This document shows, one piece after another, positions 4,612 to 64,000 of a stretch of DNA of 64,000 nt. The notes below the pieces were generated by a model. It saw nothing but the letters and a program-made list of their open reading frames with translations, ran no database searches and was not told the origin of the DNA. This DNA comes from Mobula hypostoma (lineage: Eukaryota), in the NCBI RefSeq assembly GCF_963921235.1, contig NC_086108.1, positions 51,648,001-51,712,000 on the forward strand, in the 5' to 3' direction. Both the position numbers and the translations under genes were made by a program. The first letter of the stretch is position 1; every line of letters begins with the position of its first letter.

Positions 4612-7600
4612 GTCTTTCAACATCATACAACCTCCTCCAGGTGACCCAGCCGGGGCTGATCAGACCCCAGCTTGTGTCCAGATGGCTAGCTACTTATGAC
4701 TCCATGGCTCCCCTCTTTTGAGCCACAGCCATCTTGAGGCCCTCTCTGTCACATCGGTGGTACTGCGGATGGCTCTCCTCTTCCTCTCTCCCTCGATGCC
4801 CAAAATGCTGAAGGCTCTAACTAAAGAACGGGCTATGAATCCCCTACAACCAACCTCCACTGGGAGACACCTCGCTCTCCATCCAGCCTGCTGACCAGTC
4901 CTGCGTACTTGGAGAGCTTCCTTTCAAAGGCCTCCTCCAAGCTATCTTCCCATGGGACTGTCAGCTCCAGCAGCACCACTTGCTTAGTAGACTCAGACAT
5001 TAGGACAATGTCTGGTCGCAGGGTGGTGGCTGCGATATGGTTGGGGAACTTCAGCTGCCCTTGGAGGTCCACCAACAGCTGCCAGTCCCTTGCAGAGGTC
5101 AGAATGCCTGCAGATGTTCTTTTGGCAGGTATTGGCTGCTCCCCAGCTCTGACAAAGGCAATGGTCTGCTTGGAGGGTCGGGACTGCTTCGCCCACTCAA
5201 CTCCTGCGCTGACAGCTTCAGCGATGGTCTTCAGGACCTGATTATGCCTCCACCTGTACCGTCCCTCACCAAGTGCCCTTGCGCAGCTGCTGAGGATGTG
5301 CTCCAGGGTTCCTCGCTTGGAGCACAGTGGGCACGCAGATGACTCTGCCTTGCCCCATGTGTGCAGGTTTGATGGGCTTGGAAGCACATCGTACACTGCC
5401 TGAACGAGAAATTGGATGCGGTGTGGTTCGGCTTTCCAAAGATCAGCCCAGGTCACTTTCCTCTCAACCACATTCTCCCATCTTGTCCAAGCTCCCTGTT
5501 GCTTCATTCCCACTGCCTTGCACGCTCTCATCTCCTCCACTACTGCTCTCACCTCCTCCTGAACTAGACGACGCCTTTCCTTCCCTCTGGTGTCCATTTG
5601 GGGGAGTTGGAAAGGATCCTAGCCCAGCTCGGCCTCGTGTGACCACTCCCACCAGCCTCCTGTGACGCAGCCTCGCCTCTGCCTCCTGACAGCTTCCTCT
5701 GCCCTCCACTTCCTGCCAGTACTTACTTGGATCCCTGCTCTAGCCACCTTCGGGTCACTTGAGTCCCTATACTGTAGCACTTCTCTGGCTCTTGTTACCT
5801 TGAATTCTTCCTCCAAGGATTTGAAGGGCAGTTGCAGTTTGTTGTGGTGTCCATAGAGTGCGATGCTGCTCAGGCTCTTTGGCAGCCCCAGCCATCTCCT
5901 GAGATGGTTGCTAACCCTCCTCTCTAAGGTTTCGACTGTCGGGATCAGAACTGCATAGACAAGGAGGGGCCACGGGATTCTGGGAAGAATGCTATCCCGG
6001 TACACCCAGGCTTTAAACTTCCCAGGTAGGCCAGACTTGTCCACAGATTTCAGCCAGCCATCCAACTCGGTGCAGGTTGCCTGAATGGATGTTGAGTTCC
6101 TTAAAGAGCTGTCAAAAGCTTTGCCTAAGCTCTTGACTGGCTTTTCTGTGATGGTTGGGATGGCTGTGCCTGCGATGCTGAACCAGAACTTGTTCTCCAC
6201 CTTCCCTTTCCTCAGCACCATCGATCTTGATTTGGCAGGTTTGAAATGCATCCGGGTCCACTCCACCAGCTTTACGAGCCCTTGCAGAATCCTCCGGCAG
6301 CCTGGGACTGATTCTGTGGTAACTGTGAGGTCATCCATGAATGCCCTGATAGGTGGTTGCCGTTGAGCGGAATTCATTCTGGGCCCTCTGGACTCTGGTT
6401 CAGCAGACTTAGTGAGCATGTTCATGGCTAGGGAGAACAGTGTCACTGAGATAGTGCACCCTGTGATGATGCCGATCTCCACCTTGTGCCAGGTTGATGT
6501 AATTGCTCCTGAAGAGACCCTCATCCTGAAGTTGCTGTAATAATCAACGATAAGGTCTCTGATTCTGCTGGGGCTGTGGTATTTGGTCAGTGTGAGCTGC
6601 ACCAGCTTGTGCGGAATGGAGCCATATGCATTTGCCAGGTCGAGCCACAACACTGACAGGTTGCCCTTGTTCTCTCAGGCCTCCCTGATGAGCTGTGTCA
6701 CCACACCGATGTGCTCCAGACAGCCCGGCATCCCTGAAATGCCACTCTTCTGGACTGATGTATCAATATAGGTGTTCTTTGCTAGGTAGGTGCACAACCG
6801 GTTGGAAACTGCACTGAAGAAGATCTTCACCTCGACACACAGCAGGGAGATGATGTGAAACTGATCTATCTGGGTGGCATTTTCCTCCTTCGGGATCCAC
6901 ACCCCTTCAGTCACTCTCCACTGTTCTGGGATCTTCCCCCTTCTCCAGAAGATTCTCAGGATCTTCCACGGACGCAACAGGAGTTTGGGGCAGTTCTTGT
7001 ACACTTTGTACAAGGTGTTGCTCGGTCCTGGAGCCGAGCTTGCCCTTGCTTTGCGGACGACCTCTCTGAATTCCTTTAGTTGCAGCTCTGACATGTCGAA
7101 CTGCACATCCGGTTCAGGTGGGTCTATTAGGATGTCGCACTCTCCCAACTCCTGCTCTCTTTCAGGATCATTATATATCTTCTTCAGATTTGGTCTATGT
7201 CTTCCTGCGAACAGGCCAGTTTCCCACTGCGCTTCTCCCCCAGCAACTCCTTGGTGAACTTGAAGGTGTTGGCGATAAAGGCAGCATGTTTTCGGGCCCT
7301 TTCACGATGCAGCCTCCGATGCCACTCTGCCCGGCGGAGGACCCTGATCTTCTTTCGTAGTATGCACATCAGCTGGGCCAAGCCAATGCGCTCCTCTTCT
7401 CCTGCCTCCTTGTATTGGGACTTAAGCGCTTTCATCTCCTGCCTGATGTTGTGGATCCTCAATGTTCTTTGGTTCTTCGAGTAAGATGTTTTGGAGCCTT
7501 CCTTCTCCTCTTCTCCGAACCGTTCAGCTGCGATACTAACAATAATTGTTGTCATGGCTTGCAGCTTCCTATCAGCCCCTCCCTTAGCCATTGCCTCCAG

Positions 7601-8143
7601 AATTTGGTTAACATCGTCATCAAACTGCTTCCACAGTGAAGTCATGTTAGCTGCAGGCCATTTGATCTGCCTCCTGTTAGACTTCATGTTCGAGGGATTA
7701 GTTTGCAATACTTGGAGGTTCCGGGCACCATGGGGTGACTCTGGGCCTGGCACCTCCTTCGTCTCGCCAGGTTGGACACCTGCGCGTTGTGCTGCTCCTG
7801 CTCCCGCCAAACACTTCATCCTTGCTTGGTGGATCTTCAAGCCGTGATCGTTCTTGCAGATTTTGCCACATGCACACTGCTTCCTCATCGTCGTTTGTTC
7901 ATTGCCTGGGTCTGATGTCGTTGTGTCCATCCGACTGGGGTGCTCATCCTCCCCACCTCTCGGGCACCCCTGGGGGTATCTTTTTCTTAGATTCTTTGTG
8001 GCTTTTGTGGGGGTCCTCCTCTAAGAGGACACAGATTGGGTTGCCAGCCCGTTCTGCCCTGGTTGCTGTCTCTCCGGGCTGTCACTGACTCTCCAGACGT
8101 CACCACTCTTTTCCTGGTTGTCACTGATGAACTCAGGGTGTAA

Positions 8144-8216
8144 GCTGTGTACATACACCTATTGATGCTTCTGGACACATCTTCAGTGATGTTCCTGGAA
8201 TCATTGGGTGTTTCGG
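8144..8216. repeat. 73-bp terminal direct repeat of the HERO-like element, copy 2
   Basis: Direct repeat of 4539-4611. Confidence 0.9.
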
Positions 8217-8779
8217 AAGTTTTGTTGCAGATGTTAGTAAGGCTGCACTTGAAATATTGTGTATTGCTTTGGTCACCCTGTTGTAAGAAATAAGTAATTA
8301 AACTAGAAATAGTGCATAAAATAGTTACCAGGGTGTTTTCTAGATTTGGAGTCTTGAGTTACAAGTTGAAGTTGCAGAGACTACGACTCCATCCCTGGAA
8401 GGTAGCAGATTGAGAGATGACTTGGTAGGGATAGATAAGACCATGAGGGGTGTAGATAGGGTGAAAGTGCATAGTCTTTTTCCATGGAGGGGGTGCTAAA
8501 ACCAAGGAGGCATAGGTTTAAGACTGGAGGTGAAAAAGTTAAAAGGGATATCAGGGGCAGCCTCTTCATGCAAAGTGTCACACACATTTCAAATGAACTG
8601 CCAGAAATAGGGGTTGAAGTGGGCACATTGGCAACATTTCAAATCCATCTAAATAAGTACATGGATGGGAGGGGTTTAAAGGGCTATGGGTCAAACATGG
8701 ACAGAGGGGACTCGCTTGCTAGGCAACAGAGTCAGCATGGACAAGTTGGGTCATTTCGATACTGTGTAGCATTATGACT

Positions 8780-30630: not shown

Positions 30631-30988
30631 GATACATTTTATTATTTAAGAACTCTGTCATATTAGGAATAGATATTATTTATTCCATCTGAATAAGCAT
30701 TCTGAATAATCCAAATCTGCAATCGTCATCAAATCTCATTTTAATCTTCTTTGTTACAAGGAGAACAATCCAATATCAACCTCAAATTATCTCCAGAACT
30801 CTTTGCAATATCGATCTATTCCTACTCTTCTTCAATGTTCAATATGTAAAGAAATGCATCCTGTCATCAGTCCTCAACTATACATTAACTAAACAGAAAA
30901 TGAAAGTCAATGAGACAATGGGATTTAAATGGGTTGAAAATGAAATATTTTGAATACATATTTTGTCAGAGGCACTATCTGTAATACA

Positions 30989-31176
30989 GGTTCATCACAC
31001 ATATGTACAGATGCAGCCATTCAGCATGTTAGATTTTCATCAGCAATGATCATGGCAAACTCATCGATGAATTTCTCTGCAGCTTTGTGTTCAGCAGAAA
31101 CTTTATCACCACAAACCTTTAAAAATTTAATGCCATGCCTTTCCTTTAATTTCTGCAACCAACCTGTTGAATATTC
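30989..31176 (-). mobile_element. Inverted partial copy of the same Tigger-like element
   Basis: Reverse complement aligns with 31543-31728. Confidence 0.75.
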
Positions 31177-31189
31177 TCAATATTCACAA

Positions 31190-31884
31190 TGGATATCCCT
31201 TTATCCGAAATTCCAAAATCCGAAAAACTCCAAATCTGATATTTTTTTGAGTGCTGAAATGACATCATAAATAGTTAATTCCACAAGGTACTGGGAAGAT
31301 TCTCAGGTGATGTGCGGGTCTCTACACACCACAGACGCTCCTGAGAAGTGACCTCATGTAGGTAATAAACAGAAGTTAATGAAAATTTTTTAAAACACTG
31401 CATGAAGTGAAAATGAAGAACTTGATCGTGTATTGAAAGTTTAGATTTGTCAGCGTCAGAGTGAGCATTTGATGCTTAACGGTGTGATGATCATGAAGCA
31501 AGCAAAAATCCACCACAATGAACTGAAATTGAAGGTAATTTTGAATGTTCAGCAGGCTGTTGCAGAAATTTAAGAAAAGGCACGGCATTAAATTTTTAAA
31601 GATTTACAGTATAAAGTGTCTGCTAATCATGAAGCAGTAGAGAAATTCACTGATGGGTTTGTCAAGATCATTGCTGATGAAAAACTAACACATTGAATGA
31701 CAGCATCAGTATATATGTGTGTGATGAACAAGTATAAGACAAAGACTGCTTATCTGTTGCATATAAATTCAGTCAGGAATGATGACGATCCCAAGCTATC
31801 TCATTATATTTTCCAACATCCTAAAGGATCTGAAATCCAAACATTTCCAGCCCCAAACATTTCGAATAGGGTATACTCAACCTA
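31190..31884 (+). mobile_element. Tigger/pogo-like non-autonomous DNA transposon
   Basis: Termini tatcccttt(t)atccgaaa / tttcgaatagggtatactcaacct (Tigger4/MER46-like); CENP-B-like HTH remnant LQKFKKRHGIKFLK. Confidence 0.75.
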
Positions 31885-33050: not shown

Positions 33051-36000
33051 GTAGGTTATAAAGCAGGTAAGTTATCACACAAAAATCTTCAGCTTAAGCA
33101 TGTCTATAAATTCTAAATATTTACCCAATTCACAGCATTTTGGGAGGCACTTTTTTCCCTGCCCTGTTCATTGGCATTGACACAAATACACAATCTGAAT
33201 AAATTTTTCGAGGCGAAGCAGTTTCAATTTCCCTTTCTGATAAAATCCATTCAAAGTTGAGGCTGGCAGCACATTCCTCTCTGCTTACGTGTCTGTTGTC
33301 AATGCAGGTGTCAAACACAATGTGCCTTGTCATGTTAACATTTGGAGCGTGCAGGCGTAGTCAAACTAGGGAGGGTTGTGGTTGGAGCAAACGACTGAGC
33401 CTGCTGTTGGGAGTTGCTCTCAGGCCGGAAGAGTGGCTGAGATGGCAAGAAGCAGCAAAGAAGATGGAGATAACGAATAGGAGGTGGTATTGAGTGCTGG
33501 TTGTATGGAGGAAGAAGAATGGCTGGCTTCTGGGAAAGAGAACAATAAGTAGCTGATTAGGGTTTTGTTGAGATTTGAATTTGGACCTGTTTCTGATATC
33601 AATGCAATTATACTAACAAAGGATTCAAGGAAATCATTAGGAGCTATTGTGGATGCAAAACCTTTAAGAGATTGGGCACTCTTAGTATTTTATAAAGATC
33701 GTAAGCAAAGTGAGAAAGATTTGGGGTTAAAATCTGTGAGAGGAATAAAGGAATTATATTGAATGACAGCTGCTTAGCCTTGAAAAGTTTATTCAGATTG
33801 TGTATTTGTATCAATGCCAATGAACAGTGCGGAATAAAAAGTGCCTCCCAAGATGCTGTGAATTGGATAAATTGGGGAGTAATCTCTGGAGTGTCTCTAG
33901 AGGTATCCATGGACCAAGTTATAAATAATTTAGCCAGCGTTGATTAAATCTGATGGAAAAAAAATTTGCCAGAGAAGGTTAGTTTAGGTTATATGAGTTA
34001 TATGGTTTAAATATATGTTTTACTCCCTCTGAGATGTTTTCAATGCCAAAAGTTTGGCCTTGTAGCAGTTGTGTGTAAGCATAGAAAGAGGTGTGGTAGA
34101 TGTGGGGAAGAATATGATTTTGACAATTGTGGAGAAGTCATTAGGTTAAAATATAACAAGTGTGGAGGAAACATAGCTCTGCTTATGCAGGGTGTCCTGT
34201 ATGTAAGAAAGCTGTGGAAGTGCAGCGTGGGGGGAAATGGGCATATCATACGCAGAAGCTCAGCAGAAAGTGAAGGCAGTGTCAATGGGACCTATTAATA
34301 TCCAGAATAAGAAATATATTAAAGACACTGTATAAGGTGCATGATTGTATTAAAAAAGGTTTTGTTGATTGTTGATAAATGCAAGTTTGTCAATTTCATG
34401 GCAGATGTGGCAAATTGAACAGCAGAAATTAAAAGTAGGACAGAAAAAATAAAATTATATTAAAACTGCAGAAAAACATCTAGAGATAAGAGATTTAACT
34501 CTAGAAGCTACTAACAATGCCTTACAAGGAGGAGAAAATAATGCTCAGACTCTAAGGTGGGGGGGGTTGTTAATTTTTTTCGAATCCTACAATGGAATGC
34601 TGGAAGCCTGTTAGCTAATGATGAAGAATTTAAGAAACTTATTGAAGATTTACCAAATAAACCAGATGTTATATGTGTGCAGGATACCTGATTGAAATAG
34701 TATCTAAGCTTTAAGATACAAGGTTATGTTGATATAAGACGCAATTGGAAAATGGGTAATGTAGGGGGAGTGGCTACCTTTGTCAAAAATAGAATAGTAC
34801 ATGGAGTTATGGAAATTGCACTTTTTTATGAGTTAATTGTGGTTGAAATTTGGGGAAAGGATAGTAAAGTACAGACAATAATTTTTTTAACCCTTGTGAA
34901 AGGCTAACTTCTGAGATATTGGAAAAAGTGGGTGGAAATGAGAAAGATAAGGTTATATGGTGTGGGGATTTTAATGCTCATAGTATTACATGGGGTTGTA
35001 GTGATGCAAATGTCAGTGGGGTGGCAGTGAAGACTTCCTGGTAGAAAAGAGTTTGATGTGTTTGAATGACGCTAGAAGTACAAAGATAAATCTATTTAAC
35101 AACACTGTTTCTGCTGCAGGCCTTACATTGCTATCCAAAGATATAGCAAGGGTGTCTAACTGGGAAGTGTATAATGATACAACAGTGGGAAATGATCATT
35201 TCCTCATTATCTGCACAATGGGAATAGATGTGTATCAGAGGCAAGGTTCTCATATCCCTAGATGGAATATTAAAATGAAAAATTGGGATGTATCTGATGA
35301 TTTACGTGAAAGTAGGCTTCTGATCACTTGGTTTTGGAGGATATCGAGTTGAGTAGTAATACCTTGTGCTCTGTACTCAACTCAATAGCTAAGGAATCAA
35401 TTCCCAGATCATTGGGAGATAATGAAAGAAAAGCTGGTCCCTGGTGGACAGATGAAGTAAATGAACCGTGAAGGAGTGGAATAAATCTTTTAGGAAAGCT
35501 AGGCAGTGTCATACTTCTTCATCTTTCATACAATATGAAAGAGCTCAAGCTATAGTTAGAAAAGTAGTGAGAAGGGCAAAGACACTATTGGAGAACATAT
35601 TGTCATAGCTTTGGGAAAGAGATCCAGGTAGGGGAAGTTTGAGGTATGATACAAAAAATGAGGGCAATTATTAAACTTAATACAATACTGGTTTTGTATA
35701 GTGGGAAGAAGGTTGCAGTACTGACTGAAGAAACTACTAGCAAAATATATGTCAGTGTACATCGTTTGGTCAATTTAAGTAGAGAGGTCTTATGGCGTAG
35801 CAGTTTTGGCCAGCAATCCTCAGATTGCTGAGGAAAAAGAATGTTCCAGTTCCTGCTTGGATGCTGAATTTACATTGTCTGAACTTAAAAGTGTGATTAA
35901 TAGTGGTGGTCAAACATCACATGGGAAAGTTGATACTTGCTATAATATGTTTATACAGTTACTGGTTTCGAAATTCTTGAATACAATATGGGTTGAAGGG

Positions 36001-37156
36001 CGATTTCCTGCTTCCTGGAAATTAGTGGTTGTTATCCCTATATTGAAATATGGTAAGGATCAATCAGATCCTTATAGTTATAGACCTATTTCGCTAACTA
36101 CACATGCCTGTAAGATAGTGGAATGAACGATTATAGCAAGGTTTTTTTTTATTTTGTGCAAGTAGTGGAAAATTAGCTGTATACCAATCTGGATCTCATA
36201 AAGGGAAAATGAACATGGACTCAGTGTTAAGTTTGCAATCTGATATTGGTAAGGCCCAAGTTAAAGCAGTTTTCTTTGATGCAGAGAAAGCTTATGATAT
36301 GTTATGGACACAAGGGTTGTTGCTTAAACTGAAAAACAATGGGAATAGGCTGTAGAATGTTCAATTAGATTCAATATTTTTAATGTGATAGGAAGATACA
36401 AGTTAGCATAGGAAGAATATTTTTAAAGACGTGAGATAGAGAAGGGGACTCCACAGGGAGGGCCTGAATTTCAGCATTACTGGTAGAAACGGGTGAAGTA
36501 CTTTTACATTTACACAAGTTGCAGTTAGCAGGGTTTATTGGGTTAGCATAAGAGGACATAAAGCTGGTCATCCAATATTGGCAACATTAGTAGAGTGCTG
36601 AGAGCAGTGTATCTGGAAGGTCTTCATTTTAGGGTGGATGGGAAATGAATGTGTACCCCTTTGTGTTGTTTCATAGTTTTTCCCTTTGCCTACGGTAGAT
36701 TTGGGCATTCAGGTAAAGATCAAGATGAGGAGCGATTGTATATCAGTGGCACAGCAAGTTCAGTAATCTATGCAAGGCAGATGAGGCTTTTTATATATCT
36801 ACACAGATGGTTCATAAGATCCAGTGACAGGTCATTCAGGAGTTTCTTTTTATGTTCCAAAGTTTCGGGTGACTATTAAGAAAAAATTATTGAATGAAGT
36901 CTCAGTATCCACATCTGAGATGGTTGCTATCACTTTAGCCTTGGATTGGGTCGAAGAAGTACGCCCTGATTACATACTTCTGTGCTCTGATTCGCTCTCG
37001 GTTTTAACATCTATTAAAATAGGTCAGCCATTCTTCTTGAAATTGTACAACATTTGTTGAGGCTGCAGGGTCTAGGCCTGTGAATACAATTCCTATGGGT
37101 CTCTGTCCATGTTGGTGTTGAAGGAAATGAGGTGGCAGACATTCTAGCCAATACTT

Positions 37157-38406
37157 TATTATGTAACTTCAAAACATTAAATTAATTCAAAGGAATTCAC
37201 AGGAGTCCAAAAAGAGCGAGTGTAACTTCATCTTTACTTTAAGCAAGGTGCGCATGTATCACTTAGTTGCAAGATGATGTATGCAATTAATGTATTTTAT
37301 ACATAATCCATAAATAATTATTTAAATGAAGAATGCTTAAACTATATATATAAGATTACTCAAATATTATTCAAGTATTAAATACACAATACTCCTTCCT
37401 GCTTAGCTATAAACAACTTAATATAGCATGCATCTCAACTATATACACAGTATACTATATAATACAACATAATATAATACAGACATCCACAGCACAATCA
37501 ATTTTAAATTGTCCCATTTAGGCCAAAAGGTTTAATCGCTGTGGAGGCTTTCTTACTCTGGTGGGATAACATCCTTCCTGACAAGGAGGTCACTCTGCTT
37601 GGCAGGTGAGACTTGTGGCTGTGGAACAACTTTAGGTTCTTAGGGTCTCCTCCGTGGTGATTGTAGGAATTGACTCTGAGACCGCAGGTAGTGGTTCTGA
37701 CAGCTCTGGATGCCTTTCTTCTCTTTTTCCTTCTAGTTTGCGCATCTTAATCTTGGGATGATCCATATAGTTCACTGAAATATTCTCTTATTAATCCTTC
37801 TATTGCTCCCTTTACCACCTGATCTCTCCTTGTAGTGTCCTCGACCACAACATCATCTGACGAACCCTCTGTTTTCAAATCTCCATTGACTCCTTTCTTT
37901 TAGCCCTTCCATTCATCCAGATGGGCTTTGTTTTTTGCATCTACTTTTACAAGCAGCATTTTGTCTCCCACTTGAAGTTCAAGTAATAACCTCAATACAC
38001 ACAAAGTAGATTTTGATTCTTTATACTCACAAAAGCGGAATGCTTGCAAATTTTCTGAAGTTCCTTGAACTCCCTTCCAGCTTAAAACTAAGCCGCATTT
38101 TGTAAGTAACTGTCTGATTATCATATCAGAGGCTTTCTCAGAAATGCTGTCTACAAAAACTGTTGTAGTTGGACCACTGCTTTCGTCAATTTCATGCTTC
38201 TTATAAGCAGCATGATCCTTTTTTTGGTCCAATATCCATTACCCCACAGAGGACAAATAGGTGCTGGTACCAAGCTCTGTGCCTCTGGGTTGGAAAGCTT
38301 ATTGGACAAATAACCTATAATTAATTATTTAAATGAACAAGAAGGCTTAGTCAAGATATATATATATATATATATAAAATATTATTGAAATATTAAATAG
38401 ACAACA
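37157..38406 (-). mobile_element. Gypsy-type LTR retrotransposon remnant nested in the Nimb LINE
   Basis: LTR at 37157-37391 with adjacent PPT (aggaaggag on minus, 37392-37400). Pol/integrase C-terminal tail YPTRVRKPPQRLN at ~37525-37570. Partial second LTR at 38310-38406 is similar to ~37304-37391. Confidence 0.75.
37716..38275 (-). pseudogene. RBM25: Intronless RBM25 mRNA fragment (RRM region)
   Basis: GPTTTVFVDSISEKASDMIIRQLLTKCGLVLSWK...QAFRFCEYKE...LLVKVDAK...LDEWK, continuing past a stop as RRDQVVKGAIEGLIREYFSEL; colinear with RBM25. In-frame stops, no introns, no poly-A. Confidence 0.92.
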
Positions 38407-39023
38407 TGACAACATACATAATTACATAATTGATCATTAAGGATATACATGTAGTGGTGAATTTGCATAAAGGGGAGGTGAAAACCATAATTAAAATGTC
38501 TGTTCCATCACTGTGACGACAAAGTTAGGATAAGGAAGCGAATAGATATCATTGACATAAAATGCAGAGAATAATGGGAACTCAACTGGGAGATGGGTAT
38601 AAAAGGGAAGAAGTTACACTCAAACATTTACATATTTGGTACACCAGGTTGAATAATTCCTTGTTCAGAATTATTATGCATGATGCGGGCATTTGTTGAG
38701 AGTGCACTTGACAATGTCGCATATATTGTTTGAATGCAGTTCCTATGAGGTGCAAAGGAAACATCTAATTGCTGAATTAATATCTTTGGGAGAGATCCAG
38801 TTTAACATGGAAAGTTCGTTAATATATCATTGCCATTGTAATATATTTAAGTATTTGACTTTCTGAAAAGCAGTAGAGTTTCTGAAATGTTCTGAGATTT
38901 TTTGGTAGGTGTGAATTTAGAGGGTATACTTCTCGTCTCTTTGCTCCGAACTCCAACTCAGTAGGTGGCGATAATGCACCTTACGTTGTTCTCCCAAAAG
39001 CTATGAAACTTTACAAGAAGAAA

Positions 39024-39156: not shown

Positions 39157-39214
39157 ATGGCTGGTTGGGCAGGATTTTCTGACGAAGAGGTGACGCGAAT
39201 AAAGCAGTTGAAAG
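39157..39214 (+). CDS. GORAB: GORAB (RAB6-interacting golgin / SCYL1BP1) coding exon 1
   Basis: ATG at 39157 gives MAGWAGFSDEEVTRIKQLK, matching the vertebrate GORAB N-terminus (WAGFSEEELRRLKQ). Ends at G|gtaaaa donor (phase 1) in a CpG-rich segment. Confidence 0.93.
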
Positions 39215-43992: not shown

Positions 43993-44207
43993 CGCAAACA
44001 CGAGGAAATCTGCAAGGAATTTCAAGCAACACACATAAAAAATGCAGGTGAATGCAGCAGGCCGGGCAGCATCTGTAGGAAGAGGTACAGTCAACGTTTC
44101 GGGCCGAGACCCTTCGTCAGGACAGGGTCTTGGCCCGAATCGTTGACTGTACCTCTTCCTACAGATGCTGCCTGGCCTGCTGCGTTCACCAGCATTTTTT
44201 ATGTGTG
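43993..44207. mobile_element. Foldback Penelope-derived mini-element, copy 1
   Basis: Inverted arms around ~44123; perfect 14-bp TSD tagcatggatagaa (43979-43992, 44208-44221); inserted in a CR1. Confidence 0.88.
44090..44123 (-). ncRNA. Minimal hammerhead ribozyme motif (Penelope type)
   Basis: GUC-CUGACGA-A-GGGU(CUCG)GCCC-GAAAC-GUU-GAC: core, stems I and II, and palindromic AC-GU stem III. Confidence 0.65.
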
Positions 44208-45640
44208 TAGCATGGATAGAAGATTGTCTGACTGGCAGGAGGCAAAGAATGGGGATAAGCAGAGCTTTTTCTGATTGGCTGCTGGTGACTTCTGGTATTC
44301 TGCAGGGATCAGTGTTGAGGCTACTTCTTTTCACATTGTGTCAGTGATGTTGGGTGATAGAATTGATGGCTTTGTGGCCAAGTTTACAGACTACATGAAG
44401 ATACATGGAGGGGTAGGTAGTGTTGAGGAAGCAGAGAGTCTGCAGAAGGACTTAGACAGAATAGGAGAATGGCCAAAGAAGTGGCAGGCAGAATATAGTG
44501 TAGGGAAGAGTGTGGTCATGCACTTTGATAGAAAGAATAAAGGCATAGATTATGGGGGAAAAATTCAAATATCAGAGGTACAAAGGTATTTGGCATCCTT
44601 GTGCAGAGTTTTCTAAAGATTAACTTAGAGGTTGGTAAGGAAAGCAACTGTCATGTTGGCATTCATTTCAGGAGGGCTAGAGGTTCAAAGGAGTTGCAGG
44701 GGACTGATTCCAAAATGAAAGGGTATGAGGTGAGTTTGATTGCACTGGATCTGTTCTTGCTGGAATGAAGTGGTGGGGGGAGAAGGGCAGATCTTATTGA
44801 AATCTATTGAATATTGAAAGGCTGTGACAGAGTGGGTATGGAAAGGATGTTTCTATAGTTGGTGACTCGAGGACCAGAGGGCACAGCCTCAGAATAGAGG
44901 GATGTCTGTTTAGAAGAGATGAGGAGGAATTTCTAGATAAAGGGTAGTGAATCGGTGGAGTTCATTGCCCCAGACAGCTGTGGAGGCCAAGTTACTGAGC
45001 GTATTTAAAGCAGAGGTTGATAGGTTCTTATTTAGTCAGGGTATTAAAGGTTACCGGAGGAGGCAGATGGATGGGGTTGAGAGGGATAATAAGTCAGCCA
45101 CGGTGGTAGAATCGTGATGGGACCATTGCTGAGTATTGCTGCTGTGACTTATGGTCGAATCAGTTTTGAGTACCATTGGCTGAGGAAGAATAGTGAACCA
45201 GAACAATAGCCCTGTTATGGAGTTTCCTTTAACTTAAATGGGCAATTATAATTTCATTTTAATGACAATATGGCCATTTTTTTGAGAACAGCACTGAAAT
45301 GTCAGTATTGAATATACTGCTGGAAAGATACATTCATTCATAATCTTGTAGTTCTGAAGTGAGAATAATCATTCTTCTAATTATAGGATTTTAATGAAGT
45401 GAAAGATGTTGCCTGGTATAACTGTCTTTCATGTGTGGGGCTGTGTGTACTGAAGAAGAGTGGCTGTTTCAGGAAAAATAAACCACCTTATTTGTTGATT
45501 TATTTTAGAGCTGTTAATTTGTATCTCATTTTCCTGGAGTATATGCAGTGCTTTAGGGAGTCAGTGTGATTCAGAATTGCAGGGAATTACTTCAATACTC
45601 AATACATTATACGTAGCACTGATTGTACTAGTAGCATATA

Positions 45641-61380: not shown

Positions 61381-62971
61381 AGGTACATAAACAGATCTTG
61401 AATACCCATCTTTAGAAGTGGTGGAATTAATTTGAAATACGATTTATGGAAAAACTACAAGATCTGTGGTTATAAAATATTAGAGGCAAGGAATTTATCC
61501 TTTTAAAGCACTAATCTGTGTGCTGGTGTGTTTCTTGGGCTAGAGGAGAATTGATGGGACAGTAGAGTTGTGAAGACTTTCAATCAAGTAGCTAAGGAGG
61601 AGAATCATTAACGTGGCATATGCTCTGAAACCAGATGGAACAGACTTGAGTTGTTTGGCAAAATTGGTAGGAAATATTCTTTGAGTGCAGAATATTGTAA
61701 TCTGGAATGCAAAGCTCAAGACTGCCGGAGAGCAAGCTAAGTAATTGTTTATAAAAAGAAATTGGATATGTAAATGAAGGCAAAATAGTTGCGAGCCAGT
61801 TTTAAAAATTAGTAAGTGTATCAGGTTGGGTGTTCGTATCATAGAGCTTGGCACATACATGATGGGCTTATCATGTGATCTGTGAAGCCCATAAAAATTG
61901 TATTGCAAGGCCTGTGGTGTTTAGACTATATGTTCTTTATAAGGCTGGCAACTACTACTGCCCGATTGTGTTCCAGTCCACAATGTAGAGCAAACACAAG
62001 CACGTATTTTCTGAGTCTTTGTCCTCCATTCAGAAGTCCCATGTGGGAGGCTATTCCAGACACCTCATGGTGCAGAAAGTTCTTCATTGCTGTTTGTCTG
62101 TTTGCCATCTTGTTCACGTTTAATCAAAAATTAAGAAATGTGGGTTTCTCTGGTTTCTTGTTTTTAATTGTTTATATTGACATAAAATTAAAATGTAGAA
62201 TTTGTGGGAATGGCTTGTAAGTATCCTCATCTCTCTACCTGGCTACAAAGCTCTCCCCCTAGCCCAGAGAAATCCTGGCAGTAACAAACTCAATGCTGAT
62301 AACTGGCTATTGAGCTTGATACCACAGGGAAACACCCAAGCATCAGCATCTCCACAGCAATCTGTAGAGCAAATCTTTGCTTTGAGAGAGCAGTGGGAGG
62401 CAGGAATTGACTGTGGTGAGGGCAAGACTCTGTGCCAGGGTCTCAACATGGCAGCATTCAGCCCCCCCTCCCCCTCTTTTGGTGCTGATTTCTTTGCTGC
62501 TTTCATTCCAGAGGACCTAGAAGTCAGCAAAGTACCAATGTTGGGTGAATTCAGAATGGAACTAAGATGCAGTTAAACAAAATAATATAGTACATTGTGG
62601 TAACTACAGATATTAATCTGCTAATAAACATTCACCATACATAAAGTTAGGGTGTGCCTTGTAAACTATATAAATGGCCAAGAGTCTGAACAAGAATGTG
62701 TTTTTCTTTTACCACATCAGTGCTGTGTTCTCCAAGATATTTCCTGTATTTCTTAATATTATGACCAAATTGTGTAATAAAGGCTTAATGTGCAATGTCT
62801 GGGAAGCATAAAACTACACAACACATTAATTTGTTCTGTTAAATTAAGGGTAACTATTAATAGAAATGAGTTGTATTTGGTTGATTATGTCAATAGGCAT
62901 GTGAGTACATCTATTTTTGATTGTACTTTTGGCATGGAGTTAAATTTTTTTTTAAATATTTAATTTTTCAG

Positions 62972-63342
62972 ATCCTTTGATTGTTGAAAAGCCAGAAAAA
63001 TTTGGAGGAGCACCATCAAAAAACAAAAGTCGTCAGCAACTCCAGAGGGAAAGAGCATTGAACCAGCATTGTCGCAAAGCAAATGGGCACAAGGAAGTTT
63101 CTCTTATCCTTCCAGAACAACAACTGGCCAAAGCAAAGATGAACCCTCCACAAGCCATGGAGTCCCCTGCACCTGAGCTGGGACCGAAGCCAATTGTAAA
63201 AGCAGCTGATAGACAATTGACTGCACCTGAAGAAAGCTGTCAAAAAGAAATGAAAGAATCTAGTGCCAAAGCATCATGTACATTGCAGGAACCCTCTGTT
63301 AAAGAGCTATCAGCAGAACAGATCAAAGGGGTGGAATTGTTA
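62972..63342 (+). CDS. GORAB: GORAB coding exon 2
   Basis: Acceptor tttttcag|AT completes the GAT codon in phase with exon 1. Translation DPLIVEK...KSRQQLQRERAL...GVEL matches GORAB KSRQQLQREKAL. The donor is either gtaagt at 63343 or gttagt at 63339, so the exon end is ambiguous by 4 nt. Later exons lie outside the window. Confidence 0.9.
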
Positions 63343-64000
63343 GTAAGTCTAGAAATAATTATTAGAAATGGTGCTTAAATACTCTTGTTGTATCTTGGTA
63401 ATGTCAAGGTTCAATCCAGCTCTCCACCACCCGCCCCCCCCACCTCAGAAAAGTCAGAAGAAACATTCGACAATGAGGTTTATATTATGTCTCATTCTAA
63501 TGTAGATACAGGAGAAAACATTCCATGCCTTTGTTACTGTCCACTTGGATCATAGCTGATCACTGTCTTGGTTTTGTTTAAAATGCCTTTGTTTCATAAA
63601 CCTTGCACAAATCCGTACAATCTCAGTTTTGGAATTGTGAATTAATCTAGCCTGAAATAAGCCCATTCTACGCCTCTTGCTGTAAAGAACAGTTTCTCAT
63701 TTTGTCTTCAGCAACCTACATCTAAAATGAAGGTTATCCCTCTTGTTCTGGGCTTCCAGCAGAGGATCTGTCTGGCCAAACATGTATTTACTCATAGCTG
63801 CCTCATTTGGATTGCCCATAAGCTGTAGTTTGCTGGCAAATGCATAGCAGATGTATCTATACTTGATGTATGCAATCTGTTTGATTCTCATTTTAATATT
63901 TTTACTGGATAGTGGTGTAATCTGCTAAAGCAGTGGTTAACCAGTTTTCAGTGAAATTAAAAGTGTTCCTAATTATAGATAACATCTGTGAAGGAAAAAG

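Follow-up and report, generated by a model that had tools for sequence, protein, structure and literature searches.

The interval from 37157 to 38406 on the minus strand of the window (the whole 64-kb stretch of DNA analyzed here) is, at a probability of roughly 0.85, a decayed copy of a multi-copy LTR retrotransposon family that carries a spliced fragment of the host gene RBM25, with a likely origin by template switching followed by likely integrase-mediated insertion and 5' deletion. The preliminary description had placed the capture event at this very locus. Instead, the element is one copy of an amplified multi-copy family, in which a host gene fragment has likely been multiplied as cargo.

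Read along the minus strand, the element consists of approximately 107 nt of LTR, a linker, the RBM25 segment, a 3' tail, a polypurine tract (PPT), and a full LTR, all situated within the ORF2 of a LINE. The downstream (3') LTR (37157-37391, minus strand) spans approximately 235 nt and has decayed terminal dinucleotides. It is directly abutted by the PPT (37392-37404, minus strand; AAGCAGGAAGGAG), which was read from the sequence. The LTR boundaries are independently marked by loose contig ends, which begin at 37162 (162 in DNA run X1 and 226 in DNA run X2) and at 37389 (279 and 390, respectively), with low mutual agreement beyond the ends at both boundaries. Fixed LTR ends next to a PPT are expected of a Ty3/Gypsy LTR retrotransposon, the putative class of the element, and bear out the PPT and full LTR first recognized at 37391-37157. 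On both sides of 37195-37273, numerous contigs match the LTR without matching across the interval, with joints and loose ends at 37195; the family therefore has LTR variants or subfamilies that differ in this region.

Upstream of the PPT lies the 3' internal tail (37405-37713, minus strand), a high-copy sequence with a broken reading that ends in ...YPTRVRKPPQRLNL. It is preceded by the RBM25 coding segment (37714-38275, minus strand), comprising the RNA recognition motif (RRM) and the following helix, with two stops and frameshifts at its 5' end. The 3'-terminal 14 positions of this segment form a purine-rich junction tract (37714-37727, minus strand), located a few codons short of an inferred RBM25 exon end. 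The linker (38276-38309, minus strand) had been put at about 35 bp; its presence holds, and its length is corrected to 24 to 34 nt, as 38309-38300 may still be LTR. Beyond it, only the first ~107 nt of the upstream (5') LTR are present (38300-38406, minus strand), including an expanded TA run, while the remainder of the LTR is absent. The outer tips of both LTRs are thus retained and the 5' LTR is cut after ~107 nt. The primer-binding site (PBS) is absent from the window copy, the region after the 5' LTR being missing, which agrees with the truncation reported earlier. The window copy contains neither a pol core nor env, and no second copy of the RBM25 element was found elsewhere in the 64-kb window.

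The upstream sequence had originally been called an LTR at 38406-38310. Its LTR identity is upheld, and the similarity runs approximately 10 nt further, to 38300. An alignment of 38406-38300 with the initial 99 nt of the downstream LTR (37391-37293) has 80 matches, 19 mismatches, and 8 gap columns; the local score is 102, whereas 500 shuffled sequences give a mean of 35 and reach at most 67. The RBM25 piece is hence flanked on both sides by LTRs of one family, as first described, in a discontinuous element (80 of the 99 aligned letters identical). The LTR-LTR divergence of 19% (K2P of 0.22) is as large as that between copies and cannot by itself prove one shared insertion; the continuity of the LINE and the target site duplication (TSD) discussed below favor both LTRs belonging to a single insertion. 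Derivation of the linker from deleted LTR sequence was considered and rejected, since 339 of 1,000 shuffles score as high against the rest of the LTR. The local structure at 37157-38406 is not an assembly error, because one X1 contig (record 4; 417 nt, 4 differences) runs through the LTR-linker-RBM25 join and another (record 8) through the LTR-LINE join, with the reservation that X1 is possibly the source sample.

The identity of the captured segment is clear at the protein level. The reading frame at 38238-37900 finds 122 proteins among 268 candidates, and among the 120 matches listed, the gene is RBM25 wherever the source names one. The best match is a shark RBM25 (P0001), of which residues 35 to 204 align without gaps to 38223-37714 over 170 codons (73.5% identity; E value, 6e-76). 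Each of five full alignments to bony-vertebrate proteins needs a two-residue gap, a pattern that points to a cartilaginous fish. Upstream of the aligned part, 38275-38224 reads by eye as LVPAP...SVG with frameshifts, corresponding to VLVP...VG. A near-length search for RBM25 proteins gave six proteins, none of which bears a ray name or was recognized as a chimera. The RRM of the window no longer scores on the Pfam RRM_1 model; that of P0001 does.

Exon borders were inferred from natural isoforms of other vertebrates among 126 proteins and lie near 38100, 38043, and 37882, with a further one just beyond 37714. After GKLQ (38043), 10 of 123 proteins carry an insert and one reads through; after QLLA (38100), one of 120 proteins shows a skip; after NG (37882), two of 96 read through, P0086 ends shortly past the border, and P0012 breaks there. 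The fourth border, after K[ED]KK[ED], is marked by 81 proteins that continue in many different ways. We take the exons so delimited to be equivalent to human exons 4 to 7. The window segment crosses all three internal borders without an insert, in agreement with the intronless RRM segment initially reported at 38275-37716. It is also internal coding sequence, ending at residue 204 of a protein of ~800 residues. No poly(A) is present at the RBM25 piece (the longest A run in 37690-37760 is 5), and no direct repeat brackets it, either among the 20 largest repeat families listed or in the sequence as read, as had been stated at the outset. These observations show that the RBM25 piece in the window is spliced and internal.

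To assess how widely the chimera is distributed, contigs of four out of 24 sequencing runs were aligned on 36900-38700 at 80% likeness; X1 and X2 are DNA runs from two organism labels. Mean summed depth in X1 equals 4,124 over the RBM25 core, 7,074 over the tail, and 5,938 in the junction bin, compared to approximately 300 over the LINE flanks. The corresponding values in X2 are 18,679, 33,388, 25,846, and approximately 1,500. In both DNA runs, the RBM25 segment consequently reaches ~13 times the depth of the LINE flanks and 0.6 times that of the tail. Depth is continuous across the junction, with 5,240 (X1) and 23,143 (X2) at 37721, within the junction tract. The RNA-labelled runs X21 (probably DNA) and X22 display a profile like that of the DNA runs. 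In organisms C to I, the share of sequence words present is only 0.07 to 0.16. Contigs of the locus itself have a depth of 7 to 8 in X1, giving a naive estimate of 230 to 1,050 copies, which is an order of magnitude only, as summed contig depth is no copy number and is inflated by overlapping short contigs. Counts of distinct contigs are firmer: at 37902, at least 116 contigs in X1 and at least 123 in X2 carry another letter, with counting capped at 128. We estimate that the family likely comprises hundreds to low thousands of copies.

Individual contigs lead to the same picture. Thirteen of the 16 DNA-run pieces listed (27,868 more exist) lie over RBM25 and are 15 to 20% diverged, a range biased by the 80% likeness cut. 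All 13 long DNA pieces listed over RBM25 that stem from other copies cross an inferred exon border without an intron. In X21, two joints (37623-37774, side 39; 37729-37768, side 87) each connect tail and RBM25 within a single contig that belongs to another copy. No listed piece extends across the RBM25/tail junction by 31 or more letters beyond the tract on each side. Over 38181-38302, depth drops to the LINE level (405 and 224 in X1), and for this reason the 5' junction is not documented for the family. The depth and the distinct, diverged contigs indicate re-amplification as a non-autonomous element. The occurrence of the same chimera at several loci, proposed earlier as a test, is accordingly seen in the many diverged contigs and in the depth across the junction.

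The host LINE provides the record of the insertion. Its 5' part (33900-37151, plus strand; 5' limit approximate) holds a zinc-knuckle-like ORF1 remnant, an endonuclease, reverse transcriptase (RT) motifs, and RNase H. It is heavily decayed, its RT motifs are visible by eye only, and its Pfam matches fall below the curated cut-off (Exo_endo_phos_2, E value of 3.6e-4; RNase_H, E value of 4.2e-4). The 3' part (38437-39023, plus strand) contains the ORF2 C terminus and an AAG-type tail, both recognized by eye, and gives no Pfam match. We assume this LINE to be of the I/Nimb type. At approximately 36450-36790 (plus strand), it seems by eye to lack the second half of the RT, a GTPQG motif being followed by RNase H within ~350 nt. 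ORF2 halts at ...GNEVADILA and resumes as ...IIKDIHVVVNLHKGEVK, the interruption lying between 37151 and 38437. In two X2 contigs derived from other LINE copies, 37151 is connected to the right flank and 14 letters precede 38437, which confirms the nesting in a LINE.

Although the preliminary description had found no TSD for the LTRs, a degenerate 5-bp TSD probably flanks the element, hidden by two 8-bp tandem duplications. Ty3/Gypsy elements generate TSDs of 4 to 6 bp; the literature search found no published source for the TSD length of the RBM25-carrying family. The left copy (TACTT; 37152-37156, plus strand) matches TACAT at 38415-38419 in four of five letters. The right copy lies within a pair of adjacent 8-bp tandem duplications where LTR and LINE meet (38400-38431, plus strand), which account for two of only eight exact 8-bp tandem duplications in the 64 kb. 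Excluding the element, the LINE anchors are separated by 35 nt in the window and by 14 in the two empty-site contigs, and the excess of 21 equals 8 + 8 + 5. These contigs are paralogous LINEs that agree by eye at only 6 to 7 of the 14 letters. The TSD model has one mismatch and requires removal of the two duplications. A four-of-five match arises by chance at 19 of 1,110 sites (1.7%) in that register and at 96 of 1,109 (8.7%) over three registers and three lengths; the agreement in length would have to be coincidental as well.

These data bear directly on whether the structure arose only once, at this locus, from a chimeric or RBM25 cDNA used to repair a break in either an LTR element or the LINE. 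The truncated 5' LTR, the missing PBS, the filler-like duplications at the right junction, and the unexplained linker would all suit such a patch. However, two DNA runs from two organisms show both the RBM25 segment and its tail junction in high copy number and in diverged form, and the LINE loses no net length at the insertion site. A one-off event is largely refuted by contig depth and divergence and is, in our view, highly improbable. The cDNA-patched deletion suggested before is likewise weakened by the probable TSD and the exact length match to empty LINE sites, and insertion by integrase with internal deletion is therefore favored over it. Even less credit is due to a processed pseudogene of RBM25 made by a LINE and inserted in a pre-existing LTR element. 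Such a copy would be intronless, as this one is, and LINEs are abundant in the window, but the segment is internal coding sequence cut at its 3' end, has no poly(A) (longest A run of 5) and no bracketing repeat, and is amplified jointly with the tail. The amplified chimera thus supports the original preference for LTR-mediated capture over a LINE-made retrocopy.

Two further alternatives concern single steps of the history. The RBM25 block could have entered the element RNA by cis- or trans-splicing or through a circular RNA, a route kept alive by the fact that both RBM25 ends lie near exon borders: the segment starts at VLVP, where the shark isoform P0001 switches to another N terminus, CAG/AG precedes this start, and the 3' end lies within a few codons of the exon end at which 81 proteins continue variously. 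Nonetheless, that 3' end is ~5 nt short of the inferred exon end and falls in a high-copy tract common to the family, and at the 5' end the first two letters of the V codon are unmatched; we regard capture by splicing as unlikely, and template switching as the likely route. As for the missing 5' region, the element may have been born short, the plus-strand DNA having jumped during reverse transcription from the LTR start to internal sequence upstream of RBM25, so that integrase inserted a cDNA with both LTR tips and without PBS or gag. The presence of both outer LTR tips and a probable TSD, together with the break inside the 5' LTR, would follow from this, yet fits a later deletion equally well. 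Nothing speaks specifically against a short birth, but the copy is old (19% LTR divergence) and the surrounding LINE looks internally deleted, which makes later deletion plausible. We thus hold a short birth to be possible at somewhat long odds, and deletion after insertion to be the preferred reading.

On the preferred reading, the history would have comprised five steps. Spliced RBM25 coding sequence would have been captured by template switching in a retrotransposon particle, the RT likely switching onto the RBM25 mRNA and back, presumably at microhomologies. The chimera, retaining its cis signals, would then have been copied in trans, with the number of sites likely in the hundreds to low thousands; the many diverged copies across the RBM25/tail junction are the basis for this step, in which trans-mobilization is the presumed mode. 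One copy would have inserted in the LINE ORF2 just past RNase H, where the nesting is observed and the 5-bp TSD probable. Subsequently, the element would have lost the remaining part of its 5' LTR together with the PBS and the 5' internal region, all absent today, and two 8-bp slips would have blurred the right junction. Neutral decay followed.

The extent of this decay is apparent from the RBM25 segment. Of the 81 positions with at least 95% conservation among 125 relatives, 16 differ between the window and P0001; the relatives themselves show a median of 0 and a maximum of 9 differences at these positions. At all 19 places in 37741-38147 among the 40 variant positions listed (427 more are recorded), 65 to 98% of the X1 depth reads another letter. 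Both stop codons are among these places, and by eye 16 of the 19 lie in codons at which window and P0001 disagree. All changes checked, the two stops and the S of VFVDS among them, are private to the window copy. This substantiates the decay by stops and RNP substitutions noted previously, except for the AFRF change in RNP1, which falls outside the positions listed. The window copy has decayed neutrally and is dead.

The tail (37405-37713) presumably resembles the C-terminal tail of a Gypsy integrase. No protein match was obtained (0 of 22 candidates, one unrelated repeat protein, no Pfam match), and a 19-nt tail motif occurred at 0 loci in viral contigs. Twelve loci in metagenome contigs that carry this motif were dismissed as chance, as all matched at the motif only.

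The mechanism itself is known: Tan et al. (2016; PMC5131818) described LTR-mediated retrocopies, or pseudo-LTR retrotransposons, of animals, with switches near exon junctions in one Gypsy family. Like those retrocopies, the RBM25 segment is a spliced partial mRNA cut at both ends, without poly(A) or TSD of its own, that replaces internal element sequence, lies on the element-sense strand, and was re-amplified non-autonomously. In contrast, that study recorded more than one insertion site for two fly retrocopies and a total of 18 sites for nine retrocopies, whereas the RBM25 family has more than 100 distinct contigs per site and a copy number likely in the hundreds to thousands. The species survey of that study did not include cartilaginous fishes. 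Maize Bs1 (cited in PMC5131818) is similarly an LTR element with host exon fragments whose switch points are common to all its copies; it differs in having 1 to 5 copies and three donor genes and in being a plant element. HERV-K with FAM8A1 and the mouse IAP and MaLR retrocopies (cited in PMC5131818) also hold a spliced host fragment between LTR-element sequences, but are mammalian endogenous retroviruses (ERVs) described as single loci. The crocodilian CrocERV29-KIT-ligand and CrocERV31-nectin3 captures (Chong et al. 2014; PMC4299795), for which a deletion derivative was described, are further vertebrate LTR retroelements replicated with a captured mRNA. Unlike the RBM25 element, they are ERVs with nine and six ORF-bearing copies under purifying selection; the RBM25 copy is decayed, lacks env and a pol core, and belongs to a far larger family. 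In scale, then, the RBM25 family is unusual, far above the 1 to 9 copies in the published cases compared, as those sources present them. No RBM25-carrying element was found in a literature search that covered few subscription papers and left out Repbase, and no mention of an RRM was found in the part of PMC3597677 available.

A host coding fragment has hence turned into a standing part of a vertebrate repeat family. The window copy, itself dead, adds anatomy only; the many dated copies of one capture would make it possible to test directly whether selection maintains cargo during transposition. It is doubtful that the RBM25 cargo was anything but passive, i.e., that a fused RRM or RNA signal aided RNA export, packaging, or escape from silencing. 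If it did, this would account for the rise of the chimera to hundreds to thousands of copies. In addition, a few amplified LTR chimeras may inflate the retrocopy counts of cartilaginous fishes. A preprint on 244 genomes (10.64898/2026.06.26.734816) ties retrocopy abundance to non-LTR content and, in its available text, names MIPOL1, SUDS3, SDF2L1, SLU7, and ZNF276 as the top cartilaginous-fish donors; RBM25 is absent from the main text and may be listed in the supplementary tables. Each of these five genes is a candidate for an origin by LTR capture and amplification. Were the cargo active and captures by LTR backbones repeated, this process, and not LINEs, would yield the top "retrocopy" genes of cartilaginous fishes.

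Several other features surround the element. A short first coding exon, MAGWAGFSDEEVTRIKQLK, followed by a GT donor, lies at 39157-39214 (plus strand) in a CpG-rich region (observed/expected ratio of 1.0, compared to 0.27 for the window), and a later exon-like frame with SRQQLQRE lies at 62956-63375 (plus strand). We presume the gene to be GORAB; Pfam and the protein atlas gave no name for it, DUF8422 being a lead only. The ATG lies ~130 nt downstream of the end of the composite element. The RBM25 piece is oriented away from this gene, so that upstream antisense transcription would read RBM25 in sense. A comparatively intact non-LTR element with long frames occupies 4836-8358 (minus strand; RVT_1, E value of 1.4e-12; zf-RVT, E value of 9.6e-6). 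Inverted-repeat pairs are present at 30975-31744 (132 nt, 77%), 33119-33872 (103 nt, 89%), and 44023-44214 (91 nt, 92%); the first two look MITE-type, and in the third, two copies of a short repeat stand head to head.
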